Of a stretch of DNA of 64,000 nucleotides, positions 35,455 through 59,228 are shown piece after piece. Made by a program: the position numbers and the translations under genes. Under the pieces are notes generated by a model. That model was given only the letters and a program-made list of their open reading frames with translations. It did no database searches and was not told where the DNA came from. The number at the start of each line of letters is the position of its first letter. Position 1 is the stretch's first letter. This DNA comes from Candidatus Sulfotelmatobacter sp. (GTDB lineage Bacteria; Verrucomicrobiota; Verrucomicrobiia; Limisphaerales; UBA11358). The stretch is from contig DATHOG010000166.1 in assembly GCA_035485115.1 (NCBI GenBank), positions 1,621 to 65,620 of the forward strand, given 5' to 3'.

Positions 35455-35964
35455 TTACCAGGCCCGCTCGGCCAGCAACTCGGTTATATTGCGTGCAAGA
35501 TCCTCGGCGAGAAGCGGTTGCGCCTGCCGTTCGGCGCTGGCAAGGTCCTGCCCGATGGCAACGAGGGTGTGCCCCCGCACCTCCCGGTCCAGCAATACCT
35601 TGCCGGTGCTGCGTTCGCGGGCGATCACGTGGACGACGACCTCAATCCGGTAATTTTCCGGCGTGATGGCGTCTGTGCCGGAGTAGCCCAGGCCGGCGCG
35701 CCGGTAGGCGGTGATCACGCCGCTGACGATGATATCGCCGCCGCCCTGCGTATCGAGATGGTAGGTGGCGTCTTCCTGGAACCGTTCGCGGAGGGCCTGG
35801 GTAAACGCATCGCCCAGGCGCGGTTCGAGCGTCTGGTTGTTGAACGGCTGTACTTCAACGGAATGGTTTCCATCCTTGTCCGGCATGGGGCCGAGGTGAT
35901 AGCTCGCGCAACCGGCGAGGGCAAAGGCGAGGGCGGCAGGCAGAAAGATTTTCAGCAGTCGCAT
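35455..35964 (-). CDS. Lipoprotein, LptE-like (LPS-assembly lipoprotein family suspected)
   Basis: 169 aa with lipobox LAGC at residues 16-19. Size and the pattern VEVQPFNNQTLEPRLGDAFTQALRERF match LptE-type lipoproteins. Lies directly downstream of the BamD-like gene. Confidence 0.5.
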   Translation of the reverse strand: MRLLKIFLPAALAFALAGCASYHLGPMPDKDGNHSVEVQPFNNQTLEPRLGDAFTQALRERFQEDATYHLDTQGGGDIIVSGVITAYRRAGLGYSGTDAITPENYRIEVVVHVIARERSTGKVLLDREVRGHTLVAIGQDLASAERQAQPLLAEDLARNITELLAERAW

Positions 35965-35972
35965 CTTGGAAA

Positions 35973-36962
35973 TCAGTTGTGCGAAGACATCTGCAGGCGC
36001 GGTTTCAACACATCAATGCGCTGGCGTGCCTGGGCGGCGAGCGGGGAACCCGCATCGAGCTGCAGCACGTCGTTGTAATAGACGACGGCGCCCGCCCATT
36101 TGTGGTTGGCCTCATAATACCGGGCAATCTGGAAGCTGCCTTGCACCTGTTCCGCCTTCATTTTGACGATGGCGTTTTGCGCCGCCGGCACGCGTTTGTC
36201 ATCGGGAAAAAACGTGATGAAGTCGGTATAGGAGGCGATGGCCTTGCTCGCGCAGCTCTGGTCGTACTCCGCCGTGTCCGCCTGTTTTTCCCAGGCGACG
36301 CCCGCGCGGTACATCGCGTCCGCGGCGATATCCGGCTGGTCATGGTAACGGTCGGCCGCGAGTTCGTAGGCCTTCACGGCCTCGGCGTAATCCTTTTGTT
36401 TTTCGCGCGCGGCGCCGATGCGCAACTGCGCGTGCGGGGCGACGTCGCTGAACGGCCCGTTGTCCACGATTTTTCCGTACAGTTTCGCGGTTTCATCCAT
36501 CGAGGGAAAAAACGGGATCACGCCCCAGACCCGGAACCATTCGCCGCCGAGAAAACGGTTGGCGATCTCGTATTGACGGACCAGCACCTCGTTGTACTCG
36601 CCGCTTTTCGGATACTTGGTCATGATGCTCTGGTAGGCATTGAAGGCGGCCTCGTCCTTGCCCTGGGTTTCCAGGCAGCGGCCGAGCAGGTATTCCGCGC
36701 GCGGCGAATAGTCGGAGAGCGGCCAGATGCGCAGGACGCGGTGGCAGGCATGGATGGTGGTCGCGTAATCCCGGGCCTTGAAGGCATCCTCGGCGACCTG
36801 CAATTGATCCTTGGCGCGCGAACGCTGCCAGCTCAACGTCTCGCCGTAGCTTTCGTAATACCAGCCTTCACCGGGAATATACACCAGCGGGGCGGGGGAA
36901 CGGAACGGCAGCAGCGCGATGAACGCGACCAGCAATATCCAGAATGAAAGGCGGCTTGCCAT
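35973..36962 (-). CDS. bamD: BamD/YfiO-like TPR outer-membrane assembly factor
   Basis: Start at MASRLSFWILLVAFIALL (complement of 36960-36962). TPR-like helical repeats with the typical ...AEDAFKARDYATTI..., TKYPKSGEYNEVL, YTDFITFFPDDKRVPAAQ. No lipobox Cys was seen. Confidence 0.55.
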   Translation of the reverse strand: MASRLSFWILLVAFIALLPFRSPAPLVYIPGEGWYYESYGETLSWQRSRAKDQLQVAEDAFKARDYATTIHACHRVLRIWPLSDYSPRAEYLLGRCLETQGKDEAAFNAYQSIMTKYPKSGEYNEVLVRQYEIANRFLGGEWFRVWGVIPFFPSMDETAKLYGKIVDNGPFSDVAPHAQLRIGAAREKQKDYAEAVKAYELAADRYHDQPDIAADAMYRAGVAWEKQADTAEYDQSCASKAIASYTDFITFFPDDKRVPAAQNAIVKMKAEQVQGSFQIARYYEANHKWAGAVVYYNDVLQLDAGSPLAAQARQRIDVLKPRLQMSSHN

Positions 36963-37003
36963 GTCCAAACGGTAATGGCGTCCGGTGTTCAAGTCAAAAC
37001 CAT

Positions 37004-37507
37004 TCAACCCCGGTAAACCATCAGCACGCCGTAATCCGTCATGATCTTTTGCGTGCCCACGTCGAACTGCTCATAGGCGATCGTATGGATGCTGATGAGG
37101 TTGGTTTCGCCAATCGTGTTCAAGTATTCCGAAACCCGGTCATCGAAATGATCGTGCCCGGACTCGATGCACTGGGCGCGGCGGATGGTGTGGATGCGGA
37201 GGCGTTTGCCCGAACCTTTTTGGACGACCTCCAGCGGCGGCTTCGGCTTGTCGATCAACATCTCGCCCGGCTTGTCGCGCACCGGGACCTTCAGGTGCAG
37301 TTCCGGTTTTTTTAACGCCGGGGGCGCAGAGGGCGGGCCGGACGGGGGCGGCGGTGTGACCGACGGCAGGGGGCCGGTGGTGACTTTGCCGGTGGCGGGA
37401 ATGGTGATGGCGGTATTGCAGGCGGGGCATTCGATCTGCGTGCCGGCGCCGCTCTCGTCCACGGCCAGTTCCTGGTCGCAGTTCGGACAGTTGAAGACGA
37501 TGTCCAT
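37004..37507 (-). CDS. Zinc-ribbon protein with proline-rich linker and conserved C-terminal domain, unknown function
   Basis: MDIVFNCPNCDQELAVDESGAGTQIECPACNTAITIP, then a PPPPSGPPSAPP linker and a compact C-terminal domain of about 70 aa. Its stop abuts the BamD-like gene. Confidence 0.6.
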   Translation of the reverse strand: MDIVFNCPNCDQELAVDESGAGTQIECPACNTAITIPATGKVTTGPLPSVTPPPPSGPPSAPPALKKPELHLKVPVRDKPGEMLIDKPKPPLEVVQKGSGKRLRIHTIRRAQCIESGHDHFDDRVSEYLNTIGETNLISIHTIAYEQFDVGTQKIMTDYGVLMVYRG

Positions 37508-38104: not shown

Positions 38105-39364
38105 TTACATGAAGTTGTTCAATACACCCTTCAACAAACCCGGCTTGGGTTCCGGCTTGATGACGGGCAGGGGCGCGACCGTCGGCGGCGCGGGCGGGGG
38201 GACTTCCGCCGCCTCGACCACCATCATCTTCGCCGTCGCGACCTTGGTCGAGCGCTGCTGCATGTTCGAATGCGTATGGTCGAGCCGCTGGCGCATGGTC
38301 GGCTTGTTGATGCTGTACTGCATGGCGGTGTCCTCGGTGATGTCGCCGTCGAGGTGGGCTTTCAACAGGGATTGTTCAAAACTATGCCAGCCATTGGAGG
38401 TGCCGGCCTCGATGATCTCGTGCAGGCGGCGGTTTTCGTTTTCGCCCAGTTCAATCGCCTCGCGCGTGCGCAGGCTGCTGCCCATGAATTCGGTGACGAG
38501 GAGGCGGCCGCCGGATTTTTTCGGGACCAACCGCTGGCCGACGACATAGCGCAGGGTGCCCGCGAGCCGTTCGCGCACGAGTTGTTCCTCGTCCTTGGTG
38601 AACAGGCCGAGAATGCGGTGGATGGTCTGGTCGGCGCTGATGGTGTGCAGCGTGGCGAAAACCAGGTGGCCGGTCTCACCGGCCGTGAGCGCGATCTCCA
38701 TGGTCTCGCGGTCGCGGATTTCGCCAACCAGGATGACCTTCGGCGCCTGGCGCAGGGCGGAGCGCAGACCGTCGGGGAAACTGAAAAAGTCGCGGCCAAA
38801 TTCGCGCTGGCTGAAGGTGGACTTCAACTGCGGATGCATGAATTCGATGGGGTCCTCGAGCGTCACCACGTGGACCTTGCTGGTGGCGTTGATTTCATTC
38901 AGCAACGCGGCGAGGGTGGTGGTCTTGCCGTTGCCGGTGCCGCCGGTGATGAACACGAGGCCGTTTTTCTCCTCGATGATGCTTTTGAAGACCGGCGGGA
39001 GGTTGAGCGCCTCGAGCGACGGCACCATGGGGGCGAGCCGGCGCATGACCATCGCGAAACTGCCGCGCTGCTTGTAGATGTTCACGCGGAAACGGCAGGT
39101 ATCCGCGAGGGCATAGCTGCAGTCGCACGCGCCGGTGCGGTCCAAATCCTCCTGAAGCTTGGCATTGCCGGCGATGATGACGCGCGCAAAGCCCTCGATG
39201 CGCGGGCCGTTCAACATCGGCTCGCCCAGCCCGGGCGTTTCCAGTTGCCCGTGGACCTCGACCTGCGGCAGCTTGCCGGGCACGAACAACAGGTCGGAGA
39301 TGTCCTTGTGGCTCTCCACCATGAGGCTGAGGAGACGGTTGAATTCTGCAAATGTATTGTCCAT
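38105..39364 (-). CDS. pilT: PilT/PilU-family type IV pilus retraction-type ATPase with extended Pro-rich C-terminal tail
   Basis: Walker A GGTGNGKTTT, Asp box VVTLEDPIEF, Walker B KVILVGEIRD, His box GHLVFATLHT. About 70 extra C-terminal residues follow (...EVPPPAPPTVAPLPVIKPEPKPGLL...). Confidence 0.85.
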   Translation of the reverse strand: MDNTFAEFNRLLSLMVESHKDISDLLFVPGKLPQVEVHGQLETPGLGEPMLNGPRIEGFARVIIAGNAKLQEDLDRTGACDCSYALADTCRFRVNIYKQRGSFAMVMRRLAPMVPSLEALNLPPVFKSIIEEKNGLVFITGGTGNGKTTTLAALLNEINATSKVHVVTLEDPIEFMHPQLKSTFSQREFGRDFFSFPDGLRSALRQAPKVILVGEIRDRETMEIALTAGETGHLVFATLHTISADQTIHRILGLFTKDEEQLVRERLAGTLRYVVGQRLVPKKSGGRLLVTEFMGSSLRTREAIELGENENRRLHEIIEAGTSNGWHSFEQSLLKAHLDGDITEDTAMQYSINKPTMRQRLDHTHSNMQQRSTKVATAKMMVVEAAEVPPPAPPTVAPLPVIKPEPKPGLLKGVLNNFM

Positions 39365-39367
39365 AGG

Positions 39368-39847
39368 TCAGATTTTTTTGCGAAATAATTCCTGGGGTTG
39401 GGCGACGTTCAACACGGACAGGTCAAAACCGTTATCGGGGTTGCGGACCTTGGCCTCGACGAGCTGGCGGGCGACGATGCTGGCGCAATTCGCGCTGTAA
39501 TATTTTACCAGGCCCGCGCCGGCCGATGATTTGAAAAGCACGATTAGCAGGCAATGCACGTCGATTTCGGAGACGAACACGCTGAGTTTTTCGCCCTGCT
39601 GGTAGGTATTGTGGAAATTCTTTTCGCCGACCAGCCCCGCGATGGTCTGGCTGGCCATGAAGGCCCCGCTCGCCAGCGCCGCCAGCGTGGTCAGGTCCGC
39701 GTCGCCCGCGTCGCCCTGGCTCGTGATCATAAAACCGCCCTTGTCCACGATGAGCGCGGCGGTGGCCGAGGTCTGGACGAGGAACTCGCGCAGCGCGTCG
39801 TCAAACGTTCGGGCGTCTTCCTCCAGGAGTTGCGGGAGCGTGGCCAT
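39368..39847 (-). CDS. mglB: MglB-like Roadblock/LC7 domain protein (GTPase-activating partner of MglA)
   Basis: 159 aa. AALIVDKGGFMITSQGDAGDADLTTLAALASGAFMASQTIAGLVGE...LSVFVSEIDVHCLLIVLF aligns by eye with Myxococcus MglB. Its start lies 1 nt downstream of the mglA stop. Confidence 0.8.
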   Translation of the reverse strand: MATLPQLLEEDARTFDDALREFLVQTSATAALIVDKGGFMITSQGDAGDADLTTLAALASGAFMASQTIAGLVGEKNFHNTYQQGEKLSVFVSEIDVHCLLIVLFKSSAGAGLVKYYSANCASIVARQLVEAKVRNPDNGFDLSVLNVAQPQELFRKKI

Positions 39848-39848
39848 T

Positions 39849-40463
39849 TTATGCGTATTGCGGCGTGGACTGGTTGATGAACTTCTGCAACAACATCCGG
39901 GTGATCATGTTGAGGCTTTCAAACACGCCTTCGCATTTGTGGGCCGTCGCTTCGAACGAAGGGACCTGAACCTCGCGGTTGTTCAGCAGGTATTCCATGT
40001 ATTCGACCGGCGCGGCATTGGGCAGATCGCGCTTGTTGTACTGCAAAACATAGGGGATTTCCGCCAGGTTCAGCTTCTGCGACGTGAGGTTGTCCATCAG
40101 GTTTTGGAAGCTCTCGACGTTCTCCGGCATCTTTTCGTACTGCGAATCCGCCACGAACACGATCCCGTCCACCCCGCGCAGAACGAGCTGGCGCGTGGTG
40201 TTGTAGATCACCTGGCCGGGAACCGTGTAAAGCTGGAACTTCGTCTTGAAGCCGCGGATCGTCATCGCCTCGATGGGGAGAAAATCGAAGAACAGCGTGC
40301 GGTCGGAACTCGTCGCGAGCGAGACGAGCTTGCCTTTGTTGCCGCTGACGGTCTGCACATGGTCGTGAACCTGTACCAGATTCGTCGTCTTGCCGCCCAT
40401 CGCGGGGCCGTAAAAGACGATCTTGACCTGTAATTCTTTGGTAGCTTGATTGATGATTGCCAT
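39849..40463 (-). CDS. mglA: MglA, Ras-like small GTPase of the gliding/polarity family
   Basis: Start at MAIINQATKELQVKIVFYGPAMGGKTTNL (complement of 40461-40463). DRTLFFDFLP, LYTVPGQV, VFVADSQ and QYNKRDLPNA closely follow M. xanthus MglA. Confidence 0.9.
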   Translation of the reverse strand: MAIINQATKELQVKIVFYGPAMGGKTTNLVQVHDHVQTVSGNKGKLVSLATSSDRTLFFDFLPIEAMTIRGFKTKFQLYTVPGQVIYNTTRQLVLRGVDGIVFVADSQYEKMPENVESFQNLMDNLTSQKLNLAEIPYVLQYNKRDLPNAAPVEYMEYLLNNREVQVPSFEATAHKCEGVFESLNMITRMLLQKFINQSTPQYA

Positions 40464-40479
40464 AAACAACTTGGTAATA

Positions 40480-42261
40480 TTAAAACTGTTTTTTGCGGTC
40501 GAGTTCCGCCGCGAGCCCGACGAGCTGCGCCTTCGGCAGGGATTCACCCGCACGGCCGAACGCCGCGAAATAGATTGAGTTCACACGGAAAATTTTCCAC
40601 GGCACGTTGCCGATGGTGAAACCGACGTTGTTCAGCGCGCCCATCCGCAGTTCGCGCGTGCTCTGGTTCACCCGTTCGAAGATCTGCGGCAAAAACGCGG
40701 CGATCGCGTCCGCATTCAGCTCGGCGGGCACGTTGCTTGCCACGCGCAAACCGTCCGCGAGCGCCACGACTGCGCCGGTGACTCCCGGCAGGGCCAGCGC
40801 GCGGGATACAACCTCCTGCGGGTGCGCCTGGCGGTTGATGAAATCTGTCTGCGGCGCGGCGGCCATGCGCAACACTGGCGCATCCTGCTTGTCCGCGGCG
40901 GTGAAGAAATTAGTGTCTGCCACTTTTTGTACGGCCAGCGCGGCCGGCGCGATAGGCGCGGCGGCAGGCGGGTCGATTGTTTGCGCTGCCGGATCGGAAT
41001 TTCCGTTCGGGAAACCGAAAAACAGGTTGGGGATCTCTTCCGCGACCTGGACCTTACGTTTTGTAAAGCCGTTTTTCTGTGCGGCCATGAACGCCGGCGC
41101 GAGCACCTTCAACGGCAGCTCCAGCGGCAAATCGTCAAAGGGCGAGGCGGGCGAACCCGGTCTCGCCAGCGCGCGCACTTCCTTCCAGGTCATCGTCACG
41201 CGACCGCGTTTCAGGCCCGCGTCCACAAAGGCGGAATTCAGGGGCACATTCGAGAAACCGCCCGCCATGATCTCGTCTTTCAATTCCTGCGGCCAGTTTT
41301 CCGCGAGGTCGTCGAGCGTTATGTGAAGCACAGACTGCGCAGGCTGCGGACGCGGCGCGGAGGAATTCGCCGGCGTTGGCGCTGCGGGCGCAGTCGAAAA
41401 TTTGAACGGCGGCAGGGCGGAATTGCCGTTGGAGTGTCCAATCGGGTGACCATTGCCGTTGCCTTGGCCATTTTTGTTTTGCGGCGGCTGGGGAAAAACC
41501 GGGGCAACGGGAGTGATTGGGGCGGCCGGCGCGGCCGGTGGCACGACCTGACGCGGTTTGAAGGTAAAAACTTCGGTGTCACTGGTAGGCGCGGGCGCAA
41601 TGACGCGCGGCGGAAGGGGGGACGGCTTGGGGATGATTGGCGGCGGCGTGAACGGCACGGGATTGTTCTGCGCCCGCAGGTCCGTGACGGAGGGCGATGC
41701 GGCGGACGGCTTCAAGGGCTGGGTGGTGAAGGTGAGGCCCCGACCGCGTCCATCAAAGGGTCCGGATATGTCCCCGGTAACGTCCACTTTTTGCACCGGC
41801 TTGCGCGAGAGGAGCGCGGGGTTCAGGCGTGACAAAATTTCAGGCAACGGCAGGATGATCTGGCGGCTGTCATGTTCGCCGCCGGAGTTGGCGAACATTC
41901 CCGGGGCCAGGCGGCGCAGTTCGCCGAAGGAGATTTTCACCGAACCGAACGCGAGCTGCTGCAGGACGGTTTCCACCGCAAGCGCAATCATCTGTCCCGG
42001 TTGCGGGGAAGACATAAGCTTCGACTTCAAGTCCATTGGCAGGTGCGTCACAACACTGGTGAGCGGGATGAAAATTTCCGTGGCATCGGCCCCCGTGTTG
42101 CGTGCCGCCGCGGCGGCGGCCCGGCGCTGAAATTCCGTTGGTGTTTCCGGCGGCGGGGTGGCGGCGGGCGGCGGCGTGGGCGGTGCCACCTGCCGCGCGG
42201 GTGAGGAATCTTCCGCGTGACGCAGCAGGCTCCTGAAGAAGCCTGCGAATTTTAATTTCAT
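40480..42261 (-). CDS. Proline-rich scaffold protein with two copies of a 60-aa module and a C-terminal Roadblock/LC7-like domain
   Basis: About 593 aa from MKLKFAGFF. The repeated module is seen at IFIPLTSVVTHLPMDLKSKL...VKISFGELRRLAPGMF and LHITLDDLAENWPQELKDEI...RVTMTWKEVRALARPG. There are long PxP tracts. The C-terminus ALALPGVTGAVVALADGLRVASNVPAELNADAIAAFLPQIFERVNQSTRELRMG...WKIFRVNSIYFAAFG looks like Roadblock. Confidence 0.65.
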   Translation of the reverse strand: MKLKFAGFFRSLLRHAEDSSPARQVAPPTPPPAATPPPETPTEFQRRAAAAAARNTGADATEIFIPLTSVVTHLPMDLKSKLMSSPQPGQMIALAVETVLQQLAFGSVKISFGELRRLAPGMFANSGGEHDSRQIILPLPEILSRLNPALLSRKPVQKVDVTGDISGPFDGRGRGLTFTTQPLKPSAASPSVTDLRAQNNPVPFTPPPIIPKPSPLPPRVIAPAPTSDTEVFTFKPRQVVPPAAPAAPITPVAPVFPQPPQNKNGQGNGNGHPIGHSNGNSALPPFKFSTAPAAPTPANSSAPRPQPAQSVLHITLDDLAENWPQELKDEIMAGGFSNVPLNSAFVDAGLKRGRVTMTWKEVRALARPGSPASPFDDLPLELPLKVLAPAFMAAQKNGFTKRKVQVAEEIPNLFFGFPNGNSDPAAQTIDPPAAAPIAPAALAVQKVADTNFFTAADKQDAPVLRMAAAPQTDFINRQAHPQEVVSRALALPGVTGAVVALADGLRVASNVPAELNADAIAAFLPQIFERVNQSTRELRMGALNNVGFTIGNVPWKIFRVNSIYFAAFGRAGESLPKAQLVGLAAELDRKKQF

Positions 42262-42540
42262 CGTGCTAGCCATGACTTGGTATGTGTCGCAAACTTTGGC
42301 GACGCTGTACTTGAGCAATAACCCTGCCAGCCTGAAAAAGGGGTGTTTTGATGATAAAAATTGTCCTGCAGTTGGACTGGTCCGCGGGGAAATGTCCTAT
42401 TTGCGGCGATAAAACATATTTTCAAACGAAACGTGTTCAAACGGAACGCGGATTGCTTAGAATGATTGAAAAGAAGAATGGTTTGGCGCTTGAGTTTGCG
42501 CCTTGCTGCATTTAGCGGTACGGTAATTAATAGCTATCAG

Positions 42541-43617
42541 ATGGAACAAAGGAACAAAATCTTGGTGCTGGATGATGACGAGGACTGGTTGCTGCTCTGT
42601 CGCGACCTGTTCAGCTCGCTGCCCAGCCAGCCGGAAGTCTTCACCGCCAACTCCGCGCGCCGGGCGCTGACCATCATCGAGGCCGAAAAAATCCGGCTGC
42701 TCATCTGCGACCTGAAAATGCCGCGCATCGACGGATTGCAGATGCTCGCCATCGTGCGCCGGCGCTTTCCGGGATTGCGCACGATTGTCTTGAGCGGCCT
42801 GGAGGACGAGGAGTACCGTTCACGCGCCTACGCGCTGGGCGTGGACTTGTTCTGGTTGAAAACCGAGATGCAGCGGAACACGAAGTTCTTCAACGAATGT
42901 CTCGAGTCGCTGATGAGCAATAATACGGTCGAAGGCGACACCGGCTTCCGCGGCATCCAGAGCAAAAGCCTCATGGACATCATCCAGATGGAATGTCTTT
43001 CCCGCAGTTCCACGGTGTTGCGCATCACGCGCGGGCCGCTGGTGGCTAAAGTGTGGATCCAGGATGGCGATTTGATCGATGCCGAGTGCGACGGCGCGCG
43101 CGGCGAGGCGGCGTTTCAACGACTGCTCGCGTGGAAATCCGGGTCGTTCGAAAATCTTCCCCCCGAGCCGAACCGCGAACGCACGATCCAAAAATCCGTG
43201 AACGGCCTGCTGCTTGAATCCGCGCAGACGATGGATGAGAACGCCAATCCCGTCGGCCAGGATTCGATGGAAAGCGCGGCGCACCGCAAGACGATCTGGA
43301 AACTTTCACAACTCACGCGCGAGGGCGCGGATTTCATCCTGTCCGTGCCGCCGGAGGGGCAGGGCGAACCGGAAGCCATCGGCACCCAGAGCATCGCCTC
43401 GATCGCACATTGGTCGCGGCGCGCGGACGAGATCGCGCGGCGGCTGGGCGAAAAACTGGAGGCCGGGCCGTTGTCGCACGTCAGCGGGCAGAATTTGGAA
43501 CGCCAGGTGCTTCTGGTTTCACACGGTGACAAGGCATTTTTGGTCGGCTGGCCTGCGGACGCCGGCGGCAACCTGCCTGAAAAAACACGAAAAATTGCTG
43601 CATCATGGGATTCTTAA
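42541..43617 (+). CDS. Response-regulator receiver + DUF4388 (PATAN-like) protein with extra C-terminal domain
   Basis: Start at MEQRNKILVLDDDEDW. REC features: ICDLKMPRIDG, IVLSG. DUF4388-like: GFRGIQSKSLMDIIQMECLSRSSTVLRITRGPLVAKVWIQDGDLIDAECDGARGEAAFQRLLAWKSGSFE. The C-terminal domain of about 110 aa is of unknown (Roadblock-like?) fold. Confidence 0.75.
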   Translation: MEQRNKILVLDDDEDWLLLCRDLFSSLPSQPEVFTANSARRALTIIEAEKIRLLICDLKMPRIDGLQMLAIVRRRFPGLRTIVLSGLEDEEYRSRAYALGVDLFWLKTEMQRNTKFFNECLESLMSNNTVEGDTGFRGIQSKSLMDIIQMECLSRSSTVLRITRGPLVAKVWIQDGDLIDAECDGARGEAAFQRLLAWKSGSFENLPPEPNRERTIQKSVNGLLLESAQTMDENANPVGQDSMESAAHRKTIWKLSQLTREGADFILSVPPEGQGEPEAIGTQSIASIAHWSRRADEIARRLGEKLEAGPLSHVSGQNLERQVLLVSHGDKAFLVGWPADAGGNLPEKTRKIAASWDS

Positions 43618-43931
43618 AAAAATTATTCGGCGGCCTCGCGACCGTCCAGCAACTGCCCTCCGGCACGATCACGGTGGACAGGAGCGGACGCATCGTCGCC
43701 TCGACCGTGTCCACCCAATATCCGAAAAAGCTGCTGCAGATCATCGGGCACGACGTGCTCGAACTGCTCAGCGAAGCCCGGGCGGCGCAGATGCCGCTGG
43801 CCGAGTTGAGCCTGCATTTCGGCAGCCTGCGCATCACCGCCCGCGAACTGCGCGGCGGTGCCATCATCTTCCTCCTCCCGCAATCCGCGTTGCTGCCCGT
43901 TCCGCAACTGTCCAACCACCCACACGCATGA
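43605..43931 (+). CDS. Hypothetical 108-aa protein, translationally coupled on both sides
   Basis: MGFLKKLFGGLATVQQLPSGTITVDRSGRIVAST... Overlaps the upstream stop by 13 nt and the downstream start by 4 nt (ATGA at 43928-43931). Confidence 0.5.
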   Translation: MGFLKKLFGGLATVQQLPSGTITVDRSGRIVASTVSTQYPKKLLQIIGHDVLELLSEARAAQMPLAELSLHFGSLRITARELRGGAIIFLLPQSALLPVPQLSNHPHA

Positions 43932-44317
43932 GCACCAAAGACATCAACCAGCTGGTCACCCAGATCGAGACGCATATCGAGTGCTGGAAACAGTTCAACC
44001 AGTTCATCGCCTCGGCGCGCGCCAAGAAGTTCGGGCCGGCGGACGAGAACCATTTCCTCGAGATCAAAAGCATCATCGTGCAGGAGCTGGAATTGATCTA
44101 TTCCAGCATCGAGGTCCAGTCGCCCACGCGCGAAGAGATCCACCATCTCATCACCAACGCGCCCTCCCTGCGGTTCTTGAGCGAGATGAGCGAGGGCGGA
44201 CTGCGCGGCCTCGAAACGCAATGGCACAAGATCTACATCGGCTGGCATGCCATCCTCGGCCAGTTGAAGGTGAAACAGCGCGTCGTGGAGGAGAAAACCT
44301 TCTGGGGCAAAAAATAA
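43928..44317 (+). CDS. Hypothetical 129-aa helical protein
   Basis: MSTKDINQLVTQIETHIECWKQFNQFIASARAKKF..., the real 3' part of listed ORF 43214..44317. Composition is unbiased and coding-like. No family recognised. Confidence 0.6.
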   Translation: MSTKDINQLVTQIETHIECWKQFNQFIASARAKKFGPADENHFLEIKSIIVQELELIYSSIEVQSPTREEIHHLITNAPSLRFLSEMSEGGLRGLETQWHKIYIGWHAILGQLKVKQRVVEEKTFWGKK

Positions 44318-46339: not shown

Positions 46340-47407
46340 TCAGCCGTTGGAAATTTCCAGCCAGTTCGGGTTTTGCTTTGCGTGTTCCGCGATTTCCTCC
46401 AAAACCTTTTCCAGTGAAGTTTTTGGCGACCAGTTCCAGGCCTTTGCCGCGAGTGACGGGTCCAAAATCATCCACGGAATGTCAAACGGACGCGGCGTCG
46501 CCTCCGCCGCCACGGCGTGTTTGCCAAAACACATGTCGCACCAGTCGGTGAGCTGTGCGAGTGACATGGAGTTTTTCACACCACCGCTGAAGTTGGCCGT
46601 GCGCGGTTTGTTTTGGCCATCGCTTTTCATTTGCGCGAGCAACGCCGGGACGAGATCGCGTGGATGCAGGCAATCGCGCACCTGATGGCCGCCGCCATCG
46701 AAGCCGATGTATTTCAGCGGACGACGGCGCAGATGCGAGTTGAGCCAAAAGGAAAAAATTCCCTGGTCGGCCTTGCCGAACTGGCCCGCGCCCGCCAGCA
46801 CGCCGCAGCGGTTGATCCAGACGGGAAAATTGAAGGTCTCGCCGTATTCCAGCGCGATGGTTTCGCTGGCCAGTTTGCTCGAGCCATAGAGCGAAATCGG
46901 CGGCGCAGTGGAAAATTTTTCACTCACGCCGGCAACCGAAATCCCTGCCGGCAATTTTACCTTGGGTTTCGGACGGAACGCCTTTTTGTGAACCTCCACC
47001 GGCAAGGCTGCGAGCGGGGGCACGGAATAGACCCGGCTGGTGCTCAACAAGATCAGTCCGGCGCGGCGGGCTTTGCAGTATTCCAAAATATTGACCGTGC
47101 CCCAGAGATTATGTTCGAGCAACTGGCGGGAGCTGGTTTTTCCATCCACCCCGGCGAGCACGCTGGGATTGGCGGCGGCATCGATCACGAAATCGGCAGC
47201 GGGGAGGGTTTCAAAATCCGTCGCGCTGCGGACATCGGCATGAAAAATCTTCACCCCCAGCTTCGCGAGTTCGCGGCGGTTAAGCTCGCTGCCGGGGCGG
47301 ATGAAATTGTCCACGCCGAAGATCTGGACCTTGGCCGACGACTCCAACAGCGCCTTCGCCAGCGTGCTGCCGACGAACCCGCAGATGCCTGTGATGAAAA
47401 TTTTCAT
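46340..47407 (-). CDS. NAD-dependent epimerase/dehydratase (extended SDR; CDP-paratose-2-epimerase-like)
   Basis: Start at MKIFITGICGFVGSTLAKALL (GxxGxxG). STSRVYS...YGSSKLASE carries the catalytic YxxxK. Confidence 0.85.
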   Translation of the reverse strand: MKIFITGICGFVGSTLAKALLESSAKVQIFGVDNFIRPGSELNRRELAKLGVKIFHADVRSATDFETLPAADFVIDAAANPSVLAGVDGKTSSRQLLEHNLWGTVNILEYCKARRAGLILLSTSRVYSVPPLAALPVEVHKKAFRPKPKVKLPAGISVAGVSEKFSTAPPISLYGSSKLASETIALEYGETFNFPVWINRCGVLAGAGQFGKADQGIFSFWLNSHLRRRPLKYIGFDGGGHQVRDCLHPRDLVPALLAQMKSDGQNKPRTANFSGGVKNSMSLAQLTDWCDMCFGKHAVAAEATPRPFDIPWMILDPSLAAKAWNWSPKTSLEKVLEEIAEHAKQNPNWLEISNG

Positions 47408-47448
47408 TTTGATTGAGTGCGCTTCAATTTCGTCGTGCGTGTCGTGCG

Positions 47449-48636
47449 TCAATAGTTTAGCAGGGTGATGTCAAACGGGGCAACATAGCACGTCGGAAAC
47501 AGGGCGCTGCCCAGCAGGGCGCAAAATGTGATCCGGCGGCATTCATTGGTCTGGCATTGCCGGGCGAGGACCGCCGCGGCGATGAAAAGCACCGGAAATG
47601 CGTAGAACAGGCTGCGGGACAGGTCAAAAACCAAAATCGTCGCCAGCAGCACGGGAATGACGGCGCAAACGGCCAGCGCCAGTAAAAAATATTTCCGGCG
47701 GACGAGCAGCAGGGCCACCGCCAGCCCCACGATCACCAGGCCGCCCTTGAGACCGGTCAAAATAGCGGTCGGGAGAAAGTGGATGGATTTTTTTGTCATG
47801 GACCATTCACAGATGTCGCTGCCCTCGTAGAAGGTTCCCCACCGGTGAGCCAGCCACAACCGGACGGCAACAAACGTGATCACGCCGGCGATGAGGCCGA
47901 TCTGTCCCGGCTGCGGCATTAAAAAGTTTTTCAGGCTGAAATCACCCGTCTTCAGGCTGCGGCGAAGTCCGATCCACAGCCAGATCAACGGCGCGGTCAG
48001 GATGGCACGCTCATCTGTCAGGCCGCCGGCCAGGATGGCTGCCGCCGCCACGAGGGGCGAGGTCGTCCAGACGGCCAGCGCGATGAGAAAATAGGCGTAG
48101 CCGTCATAAAAGAAAAAATCGCTGAATCCCCACTGGCCGGGAAATGACACGGCCACCATCATCGCCGCCAGGAGGGCGGATAACTTGTCCTGAAAGATTT
48201 CACGGGTGATGGCCAGCACCAGCAGCAAAAACAAACACGCGAGAACCTGCTGCAACGCCAACGCCGTCGTCGGACTGAGGCCCAAAACATGGGCGACCAG
48301 CGGCACGAACACGCGGTAGGACATTTTTTCCATATGCGAGATGACGCCTTCCCGGTCCTCGTGCATTTGCACGGCCATTTCCTTGACCGGTACCGGTTGC
48401 AATGGATGGTCAAACTTCCATTGCATCACGGCGGTGCCGAATTCTTCTCCGCCGTAATGGAAATGGCGGTAGTTCGGCAGGGCAGTCATGATGGCGAAGA
48501 TGGCCAGCAGCACCGTCAAGATCATGATGTTTTTCTGCGCCAGTCCCCATGAATCAATCCGGTTCAGAAATCCGTCCAACCCTCGTGCCGCCGCCCGCAG
48601 TCCGTCCCGCGAAACGTTTGGTGTCTGGCTGTTCAT
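47449..48636 (-). CDS. Polytopic membrane protein, unknown function
   Basis: About 395 aa from the first ATG (the ORF extends to a TTG at 48666), with at least 9 predicted helices. Sits between the two SDR genes. Confidence 0.6.
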   Translation of the reverse strand: MNSQTPNVSRDGLRAAARGLDGFLNRIDSWGLAQKNIMILTVLLAIFAIMTALPNYRHFHYGGEEFGTAVMQWKFDHPLQPVPVKEMAVQMHEDREGVISHMEKMSYRVFVPLVAHVLGLSPTTALALQQVLACLFLLLVLAITREIFQDKLSALLAAMMVAVSFPGQWGFSDFFFYDGYAYFLIALAVWTTSPLVAAAAILAGGLTDERAILTAPLIWLWIGLRRSLKTGDFSLKNFLMPQPGQIGLIAGVITFVAVRLWLAHRWGTFYEGSDICEWSMTKKSIHFLPTAILTGLKGGLVIVGLAVALLLVRRKYFLLALAVCAVIPVLLATILVFDLSRSLFYAFPVLFIAAAVLARQCQTNECRRITFCALLGSALFPTCYVAPFDITLLNY

Positions 48637-48675
48637 GGATTCGGGGTTCGCCGGCGTTATCCGCAAGGCGGCAGA

Positions 48676-49725
48676 TCAGTTCAACGCCTCGAAAATTTCC
48701 TTCATGATTTCCTGCAGTCCGTAGCGGTATTTCCAGTTTGGATAATGCGATTGGAATTTGCGCACGTCGCTGATGTACCAGATATGATCGCCGATGCGGT
48801 TGTCCTCGACGTAGGTATGGGACAGTTTTTTGCCGCTGATCTGTTCGCACAGATCGATGGCTTCGAGCATGGAGCAGTTTGAATGGCGGCTGCCGCCGGC
48901 GTTATAGACTTCGCCGGAGCGCGGCTTGAGAAAAAATTGCCAGAACATCTCCACGAGGTCGTGGCTATGGATGTTATCGCGCACCTGCTTGCCCTTGTAG
49001 CCGAACACGCGATAGGGCCGGCCCGTGGCGGTACATTTCATCAGGTAAGCCAGGAAGCCATGGAGTTCCGTGCCGGCATGCGCCGGGCCGGTGAGGCATC
49101 CGCCGCGAAAGATGGCCGTCTTCATGCCGAAGTAACGGCCATATTCCTGCACCAGAATGTCCGCCGCCACCTTGCTCGCGCCGAAAAGTGAATGTTTGGT
49201 CTGATCGATGGACATCGTTTCATCAATGCCGGTGTGATAGGCATGCGCGGGATCGATTTCCCAGCGCTTCTCCAGTTCGCGCAACGGCAGGCGGTTGGGG
49301 GTGTCGCCATAGACCTTGTTTGTGCTGGTGAAAATAAAAACAGCTTCGGGGCAATGCAGCCGCGCGGCTTCCAGCAGGTTCAGCGTGCCGACGGCGTTGA
49401 CGCCGAAATCAGTGTGCGGCTCGCGCGCCGCCCAATCGTGCGACGGCTGCGCGGCGGTATGGACGACGACTTTCACGGAACCGCCGAGTTTGGCAAAAAC
49501 CCGGTTCACTCCGTCGGAGTCGCGGATATCCACGGCTTCGTGACGGTAGTTCTTCAGGGATTTTTCCAGCTTGGTGCGGGTAAGCGCGGTGGAGGCTTCC
49601 GCGCCGAAAAATTTCGCCCGCATATCGTTGTCCACGCCGACGATATCCAGACCTTCGTTGTGAAAACGTTTGCTGGTTTCAGAACCGATAAGTCCGGCCG
49701 AACCGGTGACGAGGGCGATGCTCAT
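48676..49725 (-). CDS. NAD-dependent epimerase/dehydratase (extended SDR)
   Basis: Start at [21 protein letters not shown] (complement of 49723-49725). TSTNKVYG...[11 protein letters not shown] carries YxxxK. Paralogous to 46340..47407. Confidence 0.85.
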
Positions 49726-49864
49726 GACGCGGCATGATGCCTGTGAACCGGATTTTTTGCAATGACGACAAATTTTCGCGCATTGATTTTGCATCTGTCG
49801 GGTCAACGCGATAACTTCGGCGAAGTTACAACTCGTCCGCCCGGTTTTGCTGGAAATCAAACAT

Positions 49865-51403
49865 ATGATGCCCGCAGAGGAAAAACTATCCGCCAGTCTT
49901 CCGGCTCCGCATGCCGGACGTTTTTTTTGTCCGTTCGCCATGTTTCTCTTCATCGCCGCGCTGCACCTGTGGTTTTACACGCACCTGCCGGAATCACGTC
50001 GCGACGATGGCTGGCCCAGCATCGTGATGCGCAACTGGCACGAATACGGCTATGCGGCGCTGCATGGGCAACTTGTTGCCAATCCCGGCGGCCTGGTTGC
50101 TGGCGAGGCGCAGTTCGTTTATCCCGGCCACCGCCCGGCTTTTTTGATCGCACCGTATCTGTTGAAGGAACTGCCCGGGGCGGCCTTCGGCGATGGCGCA
50201 TTATATGACTTTGCGGTGCTGGCGGCGACTTTTGCCGCCATGCTGGGACTGTTTGGCAATAACTGGCGCGGGATATTTTTTGGCGCGGTCATTTGCTTCA
50301 CCCCGGGTTTCATCAACAACGTTGCGGCGATTGACACCATCAATGTCCCTGCGCTGTTCAGCTTGTCGGTGTTGGGATTCGCCGCCGCCGTTTTTTCGCG
50401 GCGTGATTCAAGTTTGATGCTTCGCGTCGTCGCGCTGGCGGCCACGCTTGTATTCATGTGTTTGAACTGGTCGACCCTTTTTCCGCTCGGGGTCGCGGCG
50501 GTTTATATTTTTTGCAAACGGCGTGACTGGAGACCTGCGGCGGTTTTTTTTATTCCGGCGCTGTTGGTTGGGCTTGCTGTTCTGGTTGTGTCCATGCAAA
50601 GCAAACATACGGGTACGGGAGCAACCGGCGGCGACTTTTGGAACGCCTATCTTTTTGGTCCGCTGGGCTATGATCACGGCGGCATGACGTGGGGCAAGGC
50701 TTTCGTGCGCATCGGGGCGGTGAACTCGATCGCATGGCTGTCCCTGGCCGCGGCCGGACTGGTCGCGCTGTTTTTGAACGGGCGTGGCGAAAACTGGCGA
50801 CGCGCACCCTGGCCGCTGCTTGCCGGTATTGCCGCCGTGTTTGCGTTGCGCAATTATAACGCACACCATCCGTGGAACTCCGTTTGTTACATCGGTCTGG
50901 GTCTGCTCTTTTCATTGGAATTGCTGACTGCGAACGGGCCGGATTCCGTCCCGCACCGGAGCCGGTTCGCGACCGTGGCCGCGCTCGTTTTTACCCTGGC
51001 CTACGCCATCGCGTGGATGGCGCTGGATGATTTCAACGCGCGCGACTTGCGGACGGTGCGCGACCTGGTCGTGAACAACACGCCGCGCCATGGACTTGTC
51101 CTCGTCGCGGGCGACCTCCTGCCGGCGGGGCCGGCCGACTTGAAAAATTTTACCGAGATGTTCGACCGCAAGCTGGAAATGTTTGAGGATTGGAATCATC
51201 AGGCCGATGGTCGCGAGGTGTTTGTGTTAACGCATGGCGAGCTGCCCGCGGGCGCTTCTTTCGTGGCGAAAAGTCATCTGGAGCAGAAGGGCACGGACAA
51301 GGTCGTCGCGGTGTTGTTCGATTTTTATCGCGCGAATATCGCGCGCCGCTCCCCGGGGATTCGCCGGACCTATTTTGACGACTACCAGCTCGGAAAATTC
51401 TGA
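49865..51403 (+). CDS. Polytopic membrane protein with acidic first loop and C-terminal soluble domain, unknown function
   Basis: About 512 aa from MMPAEEK. The first TM ([15 protein letters not shown]) is followed by [11 protein letters not shown], then about 10 further helices and a tail of about 120 aa. Confidence 0.6.
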
Positions 51404-51405
51404 TT

Positions 51406-52725
51406 TCAGGATCGACCGGCCTCTTGGCGGATAAGCGCCGCGATCTTTTCACCCTCGCGCACGGCGAAGTTGGTGCCGCGGTCCTCGGGGAACACCTGTG
51501 AGAAATTTGCGAGGAAAACCCCGGGCAGCGGGGTTTGGTAATCGGGGATCTTTTCTTCGTAACTGGTGTCCACGATGTGCTGGGCGGCCCGGAAACGGAA
51601 AACAAATTTTTCCTCGACCTGCTTCGCATCGAAATGCGGGAACAGCTTCAACAGATAACCGAACCAGAGCCCGGTAAGATCCTCGTCGGTCAGGTTGAAC
51701 GTTTTGCCGTCCGGTGCCAGGTACGCGCCGATGTAGTAAACGTTCTTTCCGCCGTATAGGTTTTTATCGATGAAATTCGTGTGCTGGATGAAGACCAGAA
51801 AGGGCGCGCCCGGTTCGTTGACGTTCACCCAGTAATTGTTGCCGAGGCTTTGCCCGCTCGTGAACACCAGGCAGGCCGCGCCGAGATACTCGATGCTCCG
51901 CAAGTTGGCCGCATAGTCATTGAATTTCTCGCCGACCGGCAGGAGTTTTGCGAGCGCGGGCGACGGGCCGGTGAAGAGGCAGAAGTCGAACGGCATTTTT
52001 TCGCCGTTCACCTGCGCGGCGCGTTCATCTGCAAAAAACTTTTCCACCGGCGTACGCATCAGGATTTTCACCCCGCGTTCGCGCAGGATTTTTTCCAGCG
52101 CAGCCGTGACACTATTGAAGCCGCCGTTGAAGTAGCCGAGTTTTTCGCCGCCGCCGCCGGAGCGCGAATTGGCGCGGGTATGGATGCGCGCCCAGAACCA
52201 GGCCATGGAAACCTTGTCAAAGTGCCGGTCGAATTTGCCCTTTAGCAACGGCGTCCAGATCGAGTCCATCGCGCTGCGGCCGCAGGCGCGGGTCATCCAG
52301 GCATGCGCGGTCTGGCGCGTGAAGCCGCGCCAGTTCTTCTGGTGCTTGAGATACAACGCGGTGAAGCCGGTGCGGAGTCGTCCCCAAAAACTGCACGGCG
52401 AAAATTTCAACAGGTCGCCCGGCGTCTTGAACGGGTGGATTTTTCCGTCACGAAAAATTCCCACGGAACTGGCGCGCCACATCAATTTGTCCTCGAGGCC
52501 GAGTTCCTTCACCAGACCGAGGATCGCCGTGTCGGTGAGGAAAAGATGGTGGTACGTTTTTTCGAGCGACGTGCCCTGGATCTGGAATCCGCCGGCCAGG
52601 CCGCCGAGGTCGCCGGCCAGCTCGACGATGGTGACGGAAAAGTTTTTGTCCGCGGACAGCCGCAGCGCGGCGACGAGGCCGGTATAGCCGCCGCCGACAA
52701 TCAGGACTTTTTTCGGTTCGCTCAT
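51406..52725 (-). CDS. FAD/NAD(P)-dependent oxidoreductase (amine-oxidase/phytoene-desaturase fold)
   Basis: Start at MSEPKKVLIVGGGYTGLVAALRLS...VELAGDLGGLAGG (dinucleotide-binding motif). Overlaps the GtrA stop by 1 nt (TGATG). Confidence 0.8.
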   Translation of the reverse strand: MSEPKKVLIVGGGYTGLVAALRLSADKNFSVTIVELAGDLGGLAGGFQIQGTSLEKTYHHLFLTDTAILGLVKELGLEDKLMWRASSVGIFRDGKIHPFKTPGDLLKFSPCSFWGRLRTGFTALYLKHQKNWRGFTRQTAHAWMTRACGRSAMDSIWTPLLKGKFDRHFDKVSMAWFWARIHTRANSRSGGGGEKLGYFNGGFNSVTAALEKILRERGVKILMRTPVEKFFADERAAQVNGEKMPFDFCLFTGPSPALAKLLPVGEKFNDYAANLRSIEYLGAACLVFTSGQSLGNNYWVNVNEPGAPFLVFIQHTNFIDKNLYGGKNVYYIGAYLAPDGKTFNLTDEDLTGLWFGYLLKLFPHFDAKQVEEKFVFRFRAAQHIVDTSYEEKIPDYQTPLPGVFLANFSQVFPEDRGTNFAVREGEKIAALIRQEAGRS

Positions 52726-53117
52726 CAACTTTTGCGGAAGGAGACCAGGCGGTTCAGATTGTATTGCAGCAGCACGACGGCGACGATGACCACGCCGTAT
52801 GCATAAAGCGCGTTCCAGTGCCAGTGCTCGACAAATAGCTTGAGCAGCAACGCGGAGGCGATCCAGCCCAGAAATGCGACCAGGAAAAACAGGGCCAATC
52901 GCCGGCCGATGCGGTCGCTGACGCGGAAATTGAACCGTACATTCAAAAAAAAAGATAGCAGGGTGCCGGCTGCATAACCGATGGCGTTGGCGGTTTGCAC
53001 GGCCAGTCCCGCGTATTGGACCAGCACCGCGTAGAGCGCACACGTCAGCAGTGTGCCGGAACCGCCGATGGCGCAGTAGATCAAAAATTGCCGATACTCG
53101 AGCTGGCGGTTTTTCAC
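52725..53117 (-). CDS. GtrA-family small membrane protein
   Basis: 130 aa, 4 TM, with YRQFLIYCAIGGSGTLLTCALYAVL and ...LLQYNLNRLVSFR, typical of GtrA. Confidence 0.8.
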   Translation of the reverse strand: MKNRQLEYRQFLIYCAIGGSGTLLTCALYAVLVQYAGLAVQTANAIGYAAGTLLSFFLNVRFNFRVSDRIGRRLALFFLVAFLGWIASALLLKLFVEHWHWNALYAYGVVIVAVVLLQYNLNRLVSFRKS

Positions 53118-53124
53118 GCGGGAA

Positions 53125-53817
53125 TCATTGGATTATCGCCGCTGCCTGCTCATGATAGCAACAATAGCCGATCCACCGGAATTTAAAGCCCGTGGTGGCG
53201 ATGAATTCATTGAACGCCTTGAATTCGCCCTGCTGCCAGCCGGGATAATTAAACAGTTCGTCGAACACGATCACTGTGCCCGGACGGATGCGGTCGAGTA
53301 ACAGTTCAAAAATGGTCCTGGTCGAGGAATACAGATCGCAGTCAATGTGCAGGAACGCCGCGTGATCTTTGTGCCCGGCGAGGAAGGGGGGGAGTGATTC
53401 ATTGAACCAGCCCTTGTGCAATTTCACGTTGGCGCGGACGGCGGGCAGTTGGGCCAGGGCAAAACGTCCTTTGTCAAAATTCGGACGCCAGAATTCCGGC
53501 AGTCCCTCGAAGGAATCGAATCCATGGATTGTGCGCGTCGTCAGCTGGGCAAGATGGTTGATGGTGGTGCCCTGGAACACACCGAATTCACAGATGAGGC
53601 CGTTGTCATCTTTCATCTGCTTTACGGCGTGAGTCAGAAGTTCAAAATCGTTTTTGAAGGCGGGCACATCCGCCATGTGTTCGGCCACAAAACGCGCCGT
53701 TTCTTCCAGGGCAAGATCTTGCAATTTGCGTTCAATATTCTGGCCGTCCAAAAAATGCAGGAACCGGGGGTACAACCGCCGGGTGACCGGATTGGTCAGG
53801 ATGAAATGCTTGGTCAT
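53125..53817 (-). CDS. Class I SAM-dependent methyltransferase (TylF/Methyltransf_24-like)
   Basis: Start at MTKHFILTNP (complement of 53815-53817; ATGA overlap with the GT2 stop). Shows ICEFGVFQGTTINHLA and FLHIDCDLYSSTRTIFELLLDRIRPGTVIVFDE. Confidence 0.75.
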   Translation of the reverse strand: MTKHFILTNPVTRRLYPRFLHFLDGQNIERKLQDLALEETARFVAEHMADVPAFKNDFELLTHAVKQMKDDNGLICEFGVFQGTTINHLAQLTTRTIHGFDSFEGLPEFWRPNFDKGRFALAQLPAVRANVKLHKGWFNESLPPFLAGHKDHAAFLHIDCDLYSSTRTIFELLLDRIRPGTVIVFDELFNYPGWQQGEFKAFNEFIATTGFKFRWIGYCCYHEQAAAIIQ

Positions 53818-54782: not shown

Positions 54783-54815
54783 GATTGACCTCGGTGGAGG
54801 ATGACAGATTTCCAT

Positions 54816-55820: not shown

Positions 55821-55837
55821 GATCGGGAAGTTTTCAT

Positions 55838-56854: not shown

Positions 56855-56909
56855 GCGCCGAGGTTAATGGTTTGGAGGCATTCCGGCCAGCGGGTAAAAA
56901 TTTTACGGG

Positions 56910-59213: not shown

Positions 59214-59228
59214 GAACTGCCGGGTGCA

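Follow-up and report, generated by a model that had tools for sequence, protein, structure and literature searches.

A conserved six-gene MglA GTPase module with several Roadblock-like proteins in Limisphaerales, joined by a PilT-type ATPase in one clade

We analysed a 64-kilobase (kb) stretch of contig DATHOG010000166.1 from a bacterium of the order Limisphaerales (Verrucomicrobiota subdivision 3), referred to below as the window, and found that its genes for the small GTPase MglA and its partner MglB belong to a conserved six-gene module. A scaffold protein, MglA and MglB are encoded on one strand, and a response regulator with receiver (REC) and PATAN domains and two small proteins of 108 and 129 amino acids (aa), here called sm108 and sm129, on the other strand. 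All six core genes were present, with order and orientation kept, in 60 of the 60 related Limisphaerales loci that had room for them. The seventh gene of the locus, which encodes a PilT-type ATPase, is an accessory member, added downstream of mglB in the clade to which the window belongs. An earlier interpretation of the same DNA, made from its letters only (the sequence-only reading), had proposed a self-contained module in which several Roadblock-like domains surround MglA; the six core genes bear this out and are conserved. All seven genes were confirmed, at the coordinates, strands and spacing it had given, by the list of open reading frames (ORFs) of the window (Table 1); their coordinates leave gaps of 16, 1 and 3 nucleotides (nt) on the minus strand and overlaps of 13 and 4 nt on the plus strand. 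A Joint Genome Institute (JGI) contig of identical sequence has matching gene calls for the scaffold (612 aa), MglA (204), MglB (159) and PilT (419).

Relatives of the locus were found in 187 stretches in a scan of one genome per species, and the best 80 loci were taken on; nearly all of these best 80 of 187 are labelled Limisphaerales, Verrucomicrobiia or subdivision 3. Synteny was tested by tblastn of the window proteins against the related loci, the six-gene count being confined to loci with room for all six genes and the PilT count to loci with at least 1.4 kb after mglB. The six-gene synteny persists at scaffold identities as low as 36%. We conclude that the linkage of the six genes is more than chance, a chance neighbourhood being contradicted by the 60/60 synteny, and that the module is specific to Limisphaerales among the genomes scanned. 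The scaffold has more than 945 homologues, and every organism-named match came from a Verrucomicrobiota-type bin; the three genes beyond mglA and mglB that were searched each gave hundreds to more than 1000 homologues, with all named matches from such bins. Bins titled "uncultured Bifidobacteriaceae", "Candidatus Acidiferrales" or "Methylacidimicrobium fagopyrum" also carry the verrucomicrobial locus and are probably mislabelled or contaminated. The neighbourhood is thus conserved in relatives, and the seven-gene arrangement of the sequence-only reading holds for the six core genes but not for pilT, which is present in only 20/67 loci. That the window contains an ordinary mglA-mglB pair beside unrelated genes, with no larger module, would agree with the wide spread of such pairs and the general variability of their neighbourhoods (PMC4316618). 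The retention of six genes in every locus counted, over a wide range of scaffold identity and with tight spacing and overlaps, argues against this explanation, as do the three additional genes searched, with their many homologues in Verrucomicrobiota-type bins, and we regard it as very improbable.

MglA and MglB are bona fide members of their families. Typically of MglA, switch II reads TVPGQ, with Thr where DxxGQ has Asp, and DRTLFFDF supplies an intrinsic arginine finger. The window MglA matched M. xanthus MglA (6hjh) with 217 bits and 53% identity, and its motifs GxxxxGKTT (GPAMGGKTT), DRTLFFDF, YTVPGQ and NKRD all align with 6hjh. Both YTVPGQ and DRTLFFDF are the same as in the M. xanthus sequence and are invariant in 75 loci, between which MglA identity is 86-96%. 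The start of mglB lies 1 nt past the mglA stop, and the pair is kept in all loci. MglB matched Robl_LC7 (1.2e-11, 44.6 bits, cut-off 23) and T. thermophilus MglB (1j3w; 60.8 bits, 33% identity); with a score of 64 it stays below the 200 required by the Thermus-type equivalog of NCBIfam and is therefore not that equivalog. MglB is presumed to be the GTPase-activating protein (GAP) of MglA. Both proteins had been described as very close to those of Myxococcus; the similarity of MglB to its T. thermophilus counterpart is clear rather than very close. A GTPase, a Roadblock protein, small proteins without known family and a two-component link are also what a conservon-like signalling cassette, such as CvnA-D of Streptomyces, would offer. 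The GTPase, however, closely resembles the MglA proteins of M. xanthus and T. thermophilus, which are of group 1, whereas conservon GTPases belong to group 2 (PMC4316618). This candidate, to which we attach next to no credence, was rejected because neither a histidine kinase (CvnA) nor a DUF742 protein (CvnC) is among the seven genes.

Three Roadblock domains are supported at the locus: that of MglB (by Pfam), one at the scaffold C-terminus (by Pfam, below cut-off) and one in sm108 (by AlphaFold and Foldseek). The Roadblock core fold runs alpha-beta-beta-alpha-beta-beta-beta. Sequence searches with sm108 returned no Pfam or NCBIfam match, 25 of its homologues had no Pfam Roadblock match, and the best match in a profile search of the PDB, Roadblock 7yh1, was weak (E 0.059). 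An AlphaFold model was obtained from 113 homologues of at least 71% identity (mean predicted local distance difference test score (pLDDT) 79.6, core 85-95). The modelled chain starts with a short helix and continues as beta-beta-alpha-beta-beta-beta, the first Roadblock helix being reduced to a short N-terminal amphipathic helix. When the model was compared with the PDB by Foldseek, the best 50 of 954 matches (E<=10) were all Roadblock/LC7, MglB, LAMTOR or Rag/GATOR complex chains, with a probability of 1.00 throughout, a best E of 3.9e-5 and template modelling (TM) scores of 0.47-0.61. The predicted structure thus supports a Roadblock fold for sm108, which had been called Roadblock-like from a sequence pattern.

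The scaffold C-terminus matched Robl_LC7 with 4e-4 and 20.4 bits, not reaching the gathering cut-off of 23, and the same family was matched by the C-terminus of 17 of 18 scaffold homologues (best 5.6e-5), each under that cut-off. Many scaffold homologues carry the JGI label [quoted passage not shown]. The Roadblock-like character proposed for this C-terminus agrees with these matches. Outside MglB, a Roadblock fold is therefore supported in sm108 by the predicted structure, and a Roadblock-like domain in the scaffold C-terminus by the profile matches below cut-off, and three of the "three or four" Roadblock-like domains proposed around one GTPase are supported. Further upstream in the scaffold, a repeat described as two copies of a 60-aa module proved to be real but longer. 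By hhalign its two copies, ScafN and ScafM, align as homologues over ~113 columns (probability 97.4, E 1e-11) and represent a duplicated domain of ~90 to 110 aa. In AlphaFold models both copies are small alpha/beta domains with pLDDT >90, joined by a disordered proline-rich linker. The repeat model found no match in the PDB by Foldseek (best E 3.2), the repeats had no Pfam match, a profile search of the PDB with the whole scaffold gave nothing meaningful, and an exact look-up of the 593-aa sequence returned no record. The scaffold is thus predicted to carry two copies of a well-folded domain without known relative in the PDB or Pfam. An hhalign comparison among MglB, the scaffold C-terminus, sm108, the REC protein C-terminal domain, sm129, PATAN and the PilT tail scored only the scaffold repeat pair, all other pairs having a probability <12. 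Its negatives carry little weight because MglB versus sm108, whose shared fold is independently supported, was also missed.

The first gene of the plus-strand cluster encodes the response regulator, whose start is likely at 42541 because its homologues are 358 aa long. Pfam matches to Response_reg (1.5e-16) and DUF4388 (1e-14) place REC at residues 32-134 and DUF4388 at 168-259 of the ORF, followed by an extra C-terminal domain; the regulator is thus the REC-DUF4388 (PATAN-like) protein with an additional domain that had been described. The acidic pocket, the phospho-acceptor Asp and the Lys are conserved in 79 REC sequences, and the receiver site is intact. The C-terminal domain had no Pfam, NCBIfam or PDB sequence match and no hhalign link to the Roadblock candidates, results that say little because the same tests also miss sm108. 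When sm108 and this domain were concatenated as one query, only REC-PATAN proteins were among the matches listed. An association of PATAN with MglA systems has been noted before, in other phyla: mglA genes of group 1 and group 5 are occasionally found near PATAN genes (Wuichet & Sogaard-Andersen 2015, PMC4316618), and MglB-PATAN proximity goes back to Makarova 2006, as cited in PMC4316618. In the cyanobacterium Synechocystis, the PATAN domains of such regulators have PilB1 and PilC as binding partners (bioRxiv 10.1101/2021.06.11.447907).

Three proteins of the locus share a short terminal amphipathic peptide. The start of sm108, MGFLKKLFGG, almost equals the membrane-targeting sequence KGFLKRLFGG of E. 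coli MinD (PMC5471200), the scaffold family starts with a sequence like KFAGFLRGLLR (MKLKFAGFFRSLLRH in the window), and PilT ends in GLLKGVLNNFM. The pattern G-[FLIM]-[FLIM]-[KR]-x-hydrophobic-hydrophobic was found within the first 60 residues of 104/119 scaffolds, and not elsewhere in them, and within the first 12 residues of 109/113 sm108 homologues. In a six-frame translation of the window it occurred four times, always at the scaffold, sm108 and PilT genes, a statistic that is only indicative because the pattern was set after the sequences had been seen. The shared peptide may anchor all three proteins to the membrane or let them dock at one site. Such an anchor, similar to that which LAMTOR1 provides for Ragulator, together with at least three Roadblock-type domains round one GTPase and with the LAMTOR subunits and Asgard Roadblock proteins among the Foldseek matches of sm108, would suit a Ragulator-like platform, in which a membrane-anchored Roadblock scaffold would bring in the GTPase to serve an endomembrane or trafficking-type role in a bacterium of the Planctomycetes-Verrucomicrobia-Chlamydiae (PVC) group. 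The GTPase, however, is MglA, with 53% identity to the Myxococcus protein, and not of Rag or Arf type; MglB-type Roadblock GAPs are ordinary in bacteria, no trafficking-type genes are linked to the module, and the fold similarity is generic to every Roadblock protein. We therefore consider a trafficking-type function quite improbable.

The last core protein, sm129, is 55-94% identical between loci, with the motifs ECWKQF, FLExK and WHKIYIGWHxILGQ invariant. It had no Pfam or NCBIfam match, and its relatives numbered 168 among 1.84 billion representatives; those examined, including distant longer ones, contained no Pfam domain that explains function and no informative fused domain. Distant relatives (22-33% identity) have C-terminal hydrophobic, transmembrane-like segments by eye, one of them being P0457, and the two whose contigs were looked up (P0436 and P0457) are encoded directly upstream of HU, HisS and AspS, with MglA not linked. 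On two contigs (L167, L168) an sm129-like gene is preceded by genes for a BamD-like tetratricopeptide repeat (TPR) protein, BacA and a heptosyltransferase. One of the relatives, on a more divergent metagenome contig (L166:148-2619), is a 384-aa protein of three tandem sm129-like repeats, encoded after a REC-PatA_N gene and a gene of 82 aa. The distant sm129-like proteins look like a separate, uncharacterised family. In Myxococcus, RomX (structure deposited as 8ZNA) folds as a small bundle of three helices and links MglA-GTP to the receiver domain of RomR (bioRxiv 10.1101/2024.02.20.581209). By its size and by being encoded beside the REC protein, sm129 could be a RomX analogue.

PilT matched TIGR01420, the PilT/PilU family, with 346.9 bits (cut-off 319.1), and its closest solved relatives are the PilT retraction ATPases 5fl3, 2gsz and 3jvu, with 5fl3 of T. 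thermophilus (240 bits) ahead of those of Aquifex and Pseudomonas. The Walker A (GGTGNGKTT), Asp box (TLEDPIEF), Walker B (ILVGEIRD) and His box (TGHLVFATLHT) aligned with solved PilT. The core spans residues 1 to ~352 and is followed by a proline-rich tail (~353-419), in which NKPTMRQRLD and then MMVVxAA precede the proline-rich stretch. The tail is common to all mglB-adjacent PilTs with a complete C-terminus; it mostly ends in KPEPxPGLLKG(I/V)LNGF(I/M), with a few shorter or divergent ends. An atypical proline-rich tail of ~70 aa had been described in the sequence-only reading; it is real, ~65 aa long and conserved in the mglB-adjacent copies. PilT follows mglB in the 20 loci mentioned above, while the remaining 47 of 67 have unrelated genes there, often on the opposite strand. 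Neighbour-joining on the concatenated core proteins places the loci with PilT in one clade, and parsimony for PilT presence gave six changes, fitting one gain and about five losses. It follows that the conserved unit is the six-gene GTPase module and not the "GTPase-ATPase" module of the sequence-only reading, which had taken PilT, here confined to one derived clade, as a core part. The next-closest PilT relatives in a metagenome scan, of 51-67% identity, lie in unrelated contexts (apparently an RND, that is, resistance-nodulation-division, pump, UvrA and GlmS; ORFs read without profiles), and the terminal tail motif was present in none of the non-mglB-adjacent relatives of that scan. The tail, being found only in mglB-adjacent copies, thus co-varies with mglB adjacency. 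A relative of 59% identity is directly upstream of two putative PilB- and PilC-like ORFs (read without profiles), the first with a 41% tblastn match to PilT residues 117-282; if this reading is right, the source lineage of the linked PilT would lie within the pilus-motor ATPases.

We consider it probable, though with modest confidence, that the locus is a membrane-associated MglA switch, run by phosphorylation of the REC-PATAN protein and by Roadblock pairings, with control of the type IV pilus (T4P) motor as its output in this clade. MglA would cycle between its GTP and GDP states with the MglB dimer as GAP. The Roadblocks of the scaffold C-terminus and sm108 would pair mutually or with MglB and so form a platform that positions or regulates MglA, comparable to MglC in Myxococcus or to Ragulator for Rag GTPases, and the terminal amphipathic peptides would keep this platform at the cytoplasmic membrane. 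An unlinked kinase would phosphorylate the REC domain and thereby switch the module; sm129 might, speculatively, link MglA to the REC domain in the manner of RomX. One route to the pilus could be the PATAN domain, by way of PilB1 and PilC as in Synechocystis, and a second, in this clade only, could be recruitment of the tailed PilT retraction ATPase. In Myxococcus, MglA governs T4P formation (PMC11580455).

Several points weigh against the switch with a pilus output. We infer all of its protein-protein interactions and its membrane binding. The motif AIRNLIRE is typical of PilT retraction ATPases and is not conserved in the window PilT (SSLRTREAIELGE aligned with TAIRNLIRENK of Aquifex PilT); Thermus PilT 5fl3 is likewise divergent at this position. 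The C-terminus of the window scaffold falls under the Pfam gathering cut-off for Robl_LC7, and hhalign, in a low-powered test, linked no Roadblock candidate to another. A search of PDB chains gave no sequence match for sm129, a result that covers RomX 8ZNA only if the searched PDB copy holds it. PilT is missing from the locus in 47/67 cases, which leaves the core module without a demonstrated pilus output. Pilus assembly genes are absent from the window: as had been claimed for the nearer surroundings, no pilA/B/C/M-Q gene lies anywhere in the 64 kb, and the sole pilin-like gene encodes a 312-aa protein with an N_methyl prepilin motif (20340-21278, 1.3e-9), ~17 kb from pilT.

The last two points also favour the main rival, in which the six genes form a general GTPase switch at the membrane that acts mainly on something other than T4P (polar or envelope organisation, cell division or a PVC-specific membrane process) and for which PilT is a late, dispensable recruit. 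PilT next to mglB is confined to a single clade, with several losses; envelope genes often adjoin the module (BamD, LptE, a putative undecaprenyl-diphosphatase-like gene in 44 loci, a lipopolysaccharide (LPS)-type cluster), and the distant sm129-like proteins look membrane-anchored by eye and are unlinked to MglA where their contigs were looked up. The genes flanking the core six, however, vary by locus and are often on the opposite strand, and PATAN is tied experimentally to the pilus motor (bioRxiv 10.1101/2021.06.11.447907). Moreover, MglA systems studied so far, according to the literature and background knowledge, act on motility machines, and pilus genes, including a pilT copy, could sit elsewhere in genomes that lack the adjacency. 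On balance a non-pilus output seems to us rather unlikely. A more far-reaching reading is a bacterial counterpart of a Ragulator-type platform, in which three or four Roadblock domains and the duplicated domain would assemble on the cytoplasmic membrane via MinD-like end-peptides, and the same peptide code would recruit the MglA switch and, in one clade, the PilT motor. We think this reading unlikely; if true, it would be a new wiring of a small GTPase to a secretion-superfamily ATPase.

Table 1. Features of the MglA locus and its surroundings (window positions)
Feature	Position	Strand	Remarks
PilT	38105-39364	-	419 aa
PilT C-terminal amphipathic peptide GLLKGVLNNFM	pattern at 38120-38140	-	
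MglB	39368-39847	-	159 aa
MglA	39849-40463	-	204 aa
Scaffold	40480-42261	-	593 aa; 612 aa from upstream TTG start
Scaffold C-terminal Roadblock-like domain	40483-40854	-	residues ~470-592 of 593; Robl_LC7
Scaffold repeat copy 2 (ScafM)	41056-41331	-	residues ~311-402; hhalign, AlphaFold
Scaffold repeat copy 1 (ScafN)	41806-42078	-	residues ~62-152; hhalign, AlphaFold
Scaffold N-terminal amphipathic peptide	42217-42261	-	pattern at 42223-42243
Divergent intergenic region between the two operons	42262-42540	.	gene coordinates
REC-DUF4388 protein, ORF	42466-43617	+	likely gene 42541-43617, 358 aa
Response regulator, REC-PATAN-C-terminal domain	42541-43617	+	358 aa
PATAN/DUF4388 domain	~42967-43242	+	DUF4388 profile
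Conserved C-terminal domain of REC protein	43249-43614	+	~120 aa; homologue conservation
sm108	43605-43931	+	108 aa
sm108 N-terminal amphipathic peptide MGFLKKLFGG	pattern at 43608-43628	+	
sm129	43928-44317	+	129 aa
Polysaccharide-degrading enzymes, TPR protein, histidine kinase	1-24 kb		
Zn-ribbon protein, BamD, LptE, Ser/Thr kinase, AroA, PrmC and others	downstream of pilT		
Membrane protein, then LPS/O-antigen-type cluster	44.4-63 kb		

In the intergenic region between the two operons a sigma-70-like site was found at 42436-42463(+), the number of such sites not being above the shuffled expectation; promoter and terminator scans gave counts at the level of the shuffled background. Downstream of pilT, the gene for a 167-aa protein with a Zn-ribbon, a proline-rich linker and a conserved C-terminal domain runs 4 nt into the BamD start, with LptE next (35455-37507(-)). 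This protein occurs in 19 related loci, mostly with BamD and LptE directly after it, which suggests an uncharacterised partner of outer-membrane biogenesis. On three metagenome contigs (L085, L086, L109) three other genes replace the Zn-ribbon, BamD and LptE genes after pilT, by eye an AbiE-type toxin-antitoxin pair and a helicase (no profile check). The putative undecaprenyl-diphosphatase-like neighbour gene of the 44 loci was read from the sequence, with no profile search. On the other side of the module, a 647-aa protein read as a membrane protein, without family match, precedes a cluster of LPS/O-antigen type (46340-63031) with epimerases, glycosyltransferases, acyltransferases, a methyltransferase and a Wzy-type ligase. 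A DprA gene, for the DNA-processing protein of natural transformation, lies ~12.5 kb from pilT (24455-25564(+)), and DNA uptake might conceivably be tied to pilus retraction. The N_methyl prepilin gene is overlapped by 4 nt by a 1634-aa ORF without Pfam match (15439-21278(+) for both).

MglA/MglB is the best-understood bacterial small-GTPase polarity switch, and to our knowledge nearly all that is known of it comes from Myxococcus, with some from Thermus and Bdellovibrio. With this locus, a verrucomicrobial order that is uncultured and abundant in the environment shows an independent and compact solution, which supplies a defined, testable set of candidate MglA regulators and effectors. Capture of PilT by the operon in one clade is a natural experiment on how switches gain outputs, and the module brings bacteria into the discussion of Roadblock platforms that serve small GTPases, beside Ragulator and the Asgard archaeal proteins. 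MglA-family members have been noted in Verrucomicrobia (Wuichet & Sogaard-Andersen 2015, PMC4316618), and a search of the literature on MglA or Roadblock with Verrucomicrobia or Planctomycetes found no description of the module. The statement in the sequence-only reading that it did not recognise this composition as described therefore stands for the module as a whole, but not for the MglA/MglB-PATAN linkage, which is already published (PMC4316618, and Makarova 2006 as cited there). The MglA/MglB switch itself is known already; what is new is its combination with lineage-specific partners.

In its logic the locus resembles the Myxococcus polarity module (MglA, MglB, MglC, RomR, RomX and RomY), and most of the partners differ. 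Both combine MglA, 53% identical between them, with an MglB-type Roadblock GAP; the extra Roadblocks of sm108 and the scaffold C-terminus are comparable to MglC, the receiver-domain protein to RomR, and both have a protein with a proline-rich linker. The small protein beside the REC gene, sm129, is a possible RomX analogue, but it has no detectable similarity to RomX. Unlike in Myxococcus, all parts are encoded here in one locus, the regulator has the architecture REC-PATAN-C-terminal domain in place of the REC, proline-rich and glutamate-rich parts of RomR, and the scaffold brings in two copies of a domain without known relative. Three proteins with MinD-like terminal peptides, and a pilT directly after mglB in one clade, are further differences.

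Thermus thermophilus and Bdellovibrio likewise have an MglA-MglB pair, there controlling pilus-dependent functions, and Thermus proteins are the nearest solved PilT (5fl3) and MglB (1j3w). In contrast to the present locus, no equivalent scaffold, REC-PATAN protein, sm108, sm129 or pilT joined to the mglAB operon is described for them in the literature searched; the Bdellovibrio system uses RomR and a TPR protein. Cyanobacterial PatA-type regulators (PixE, PixG and others) share the combination of PATAN/DUF4388 with a receiver domain, PATAN being the output domain there. Their order is PATAN and then REC, whereas here REC comes first and a conserved C-terminal domain of ~120 aa is added, and the gene accompanies MglA/MglB rather than a chemosensory operon. 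Streptomyces conservons, too, are conserved multi-gene cassettes that pair an MglA-family GTPase with a Roadblock protein and have a two-component link; they differ in their MglA group and in the histidine kinase and DUF742 protein, which are absent here. With Ragulator (LAMTOR1-5) and the Rag GTPases, finally, the module shares several Roadblock-fold subunits and, as proposed, a membrane-anchored platform for a small GTPase, but the GTPase is of a different family, the host is bacterial, the proposed anchor is an amphipathic peptide in place of lipidation, and the assembly is predicted.

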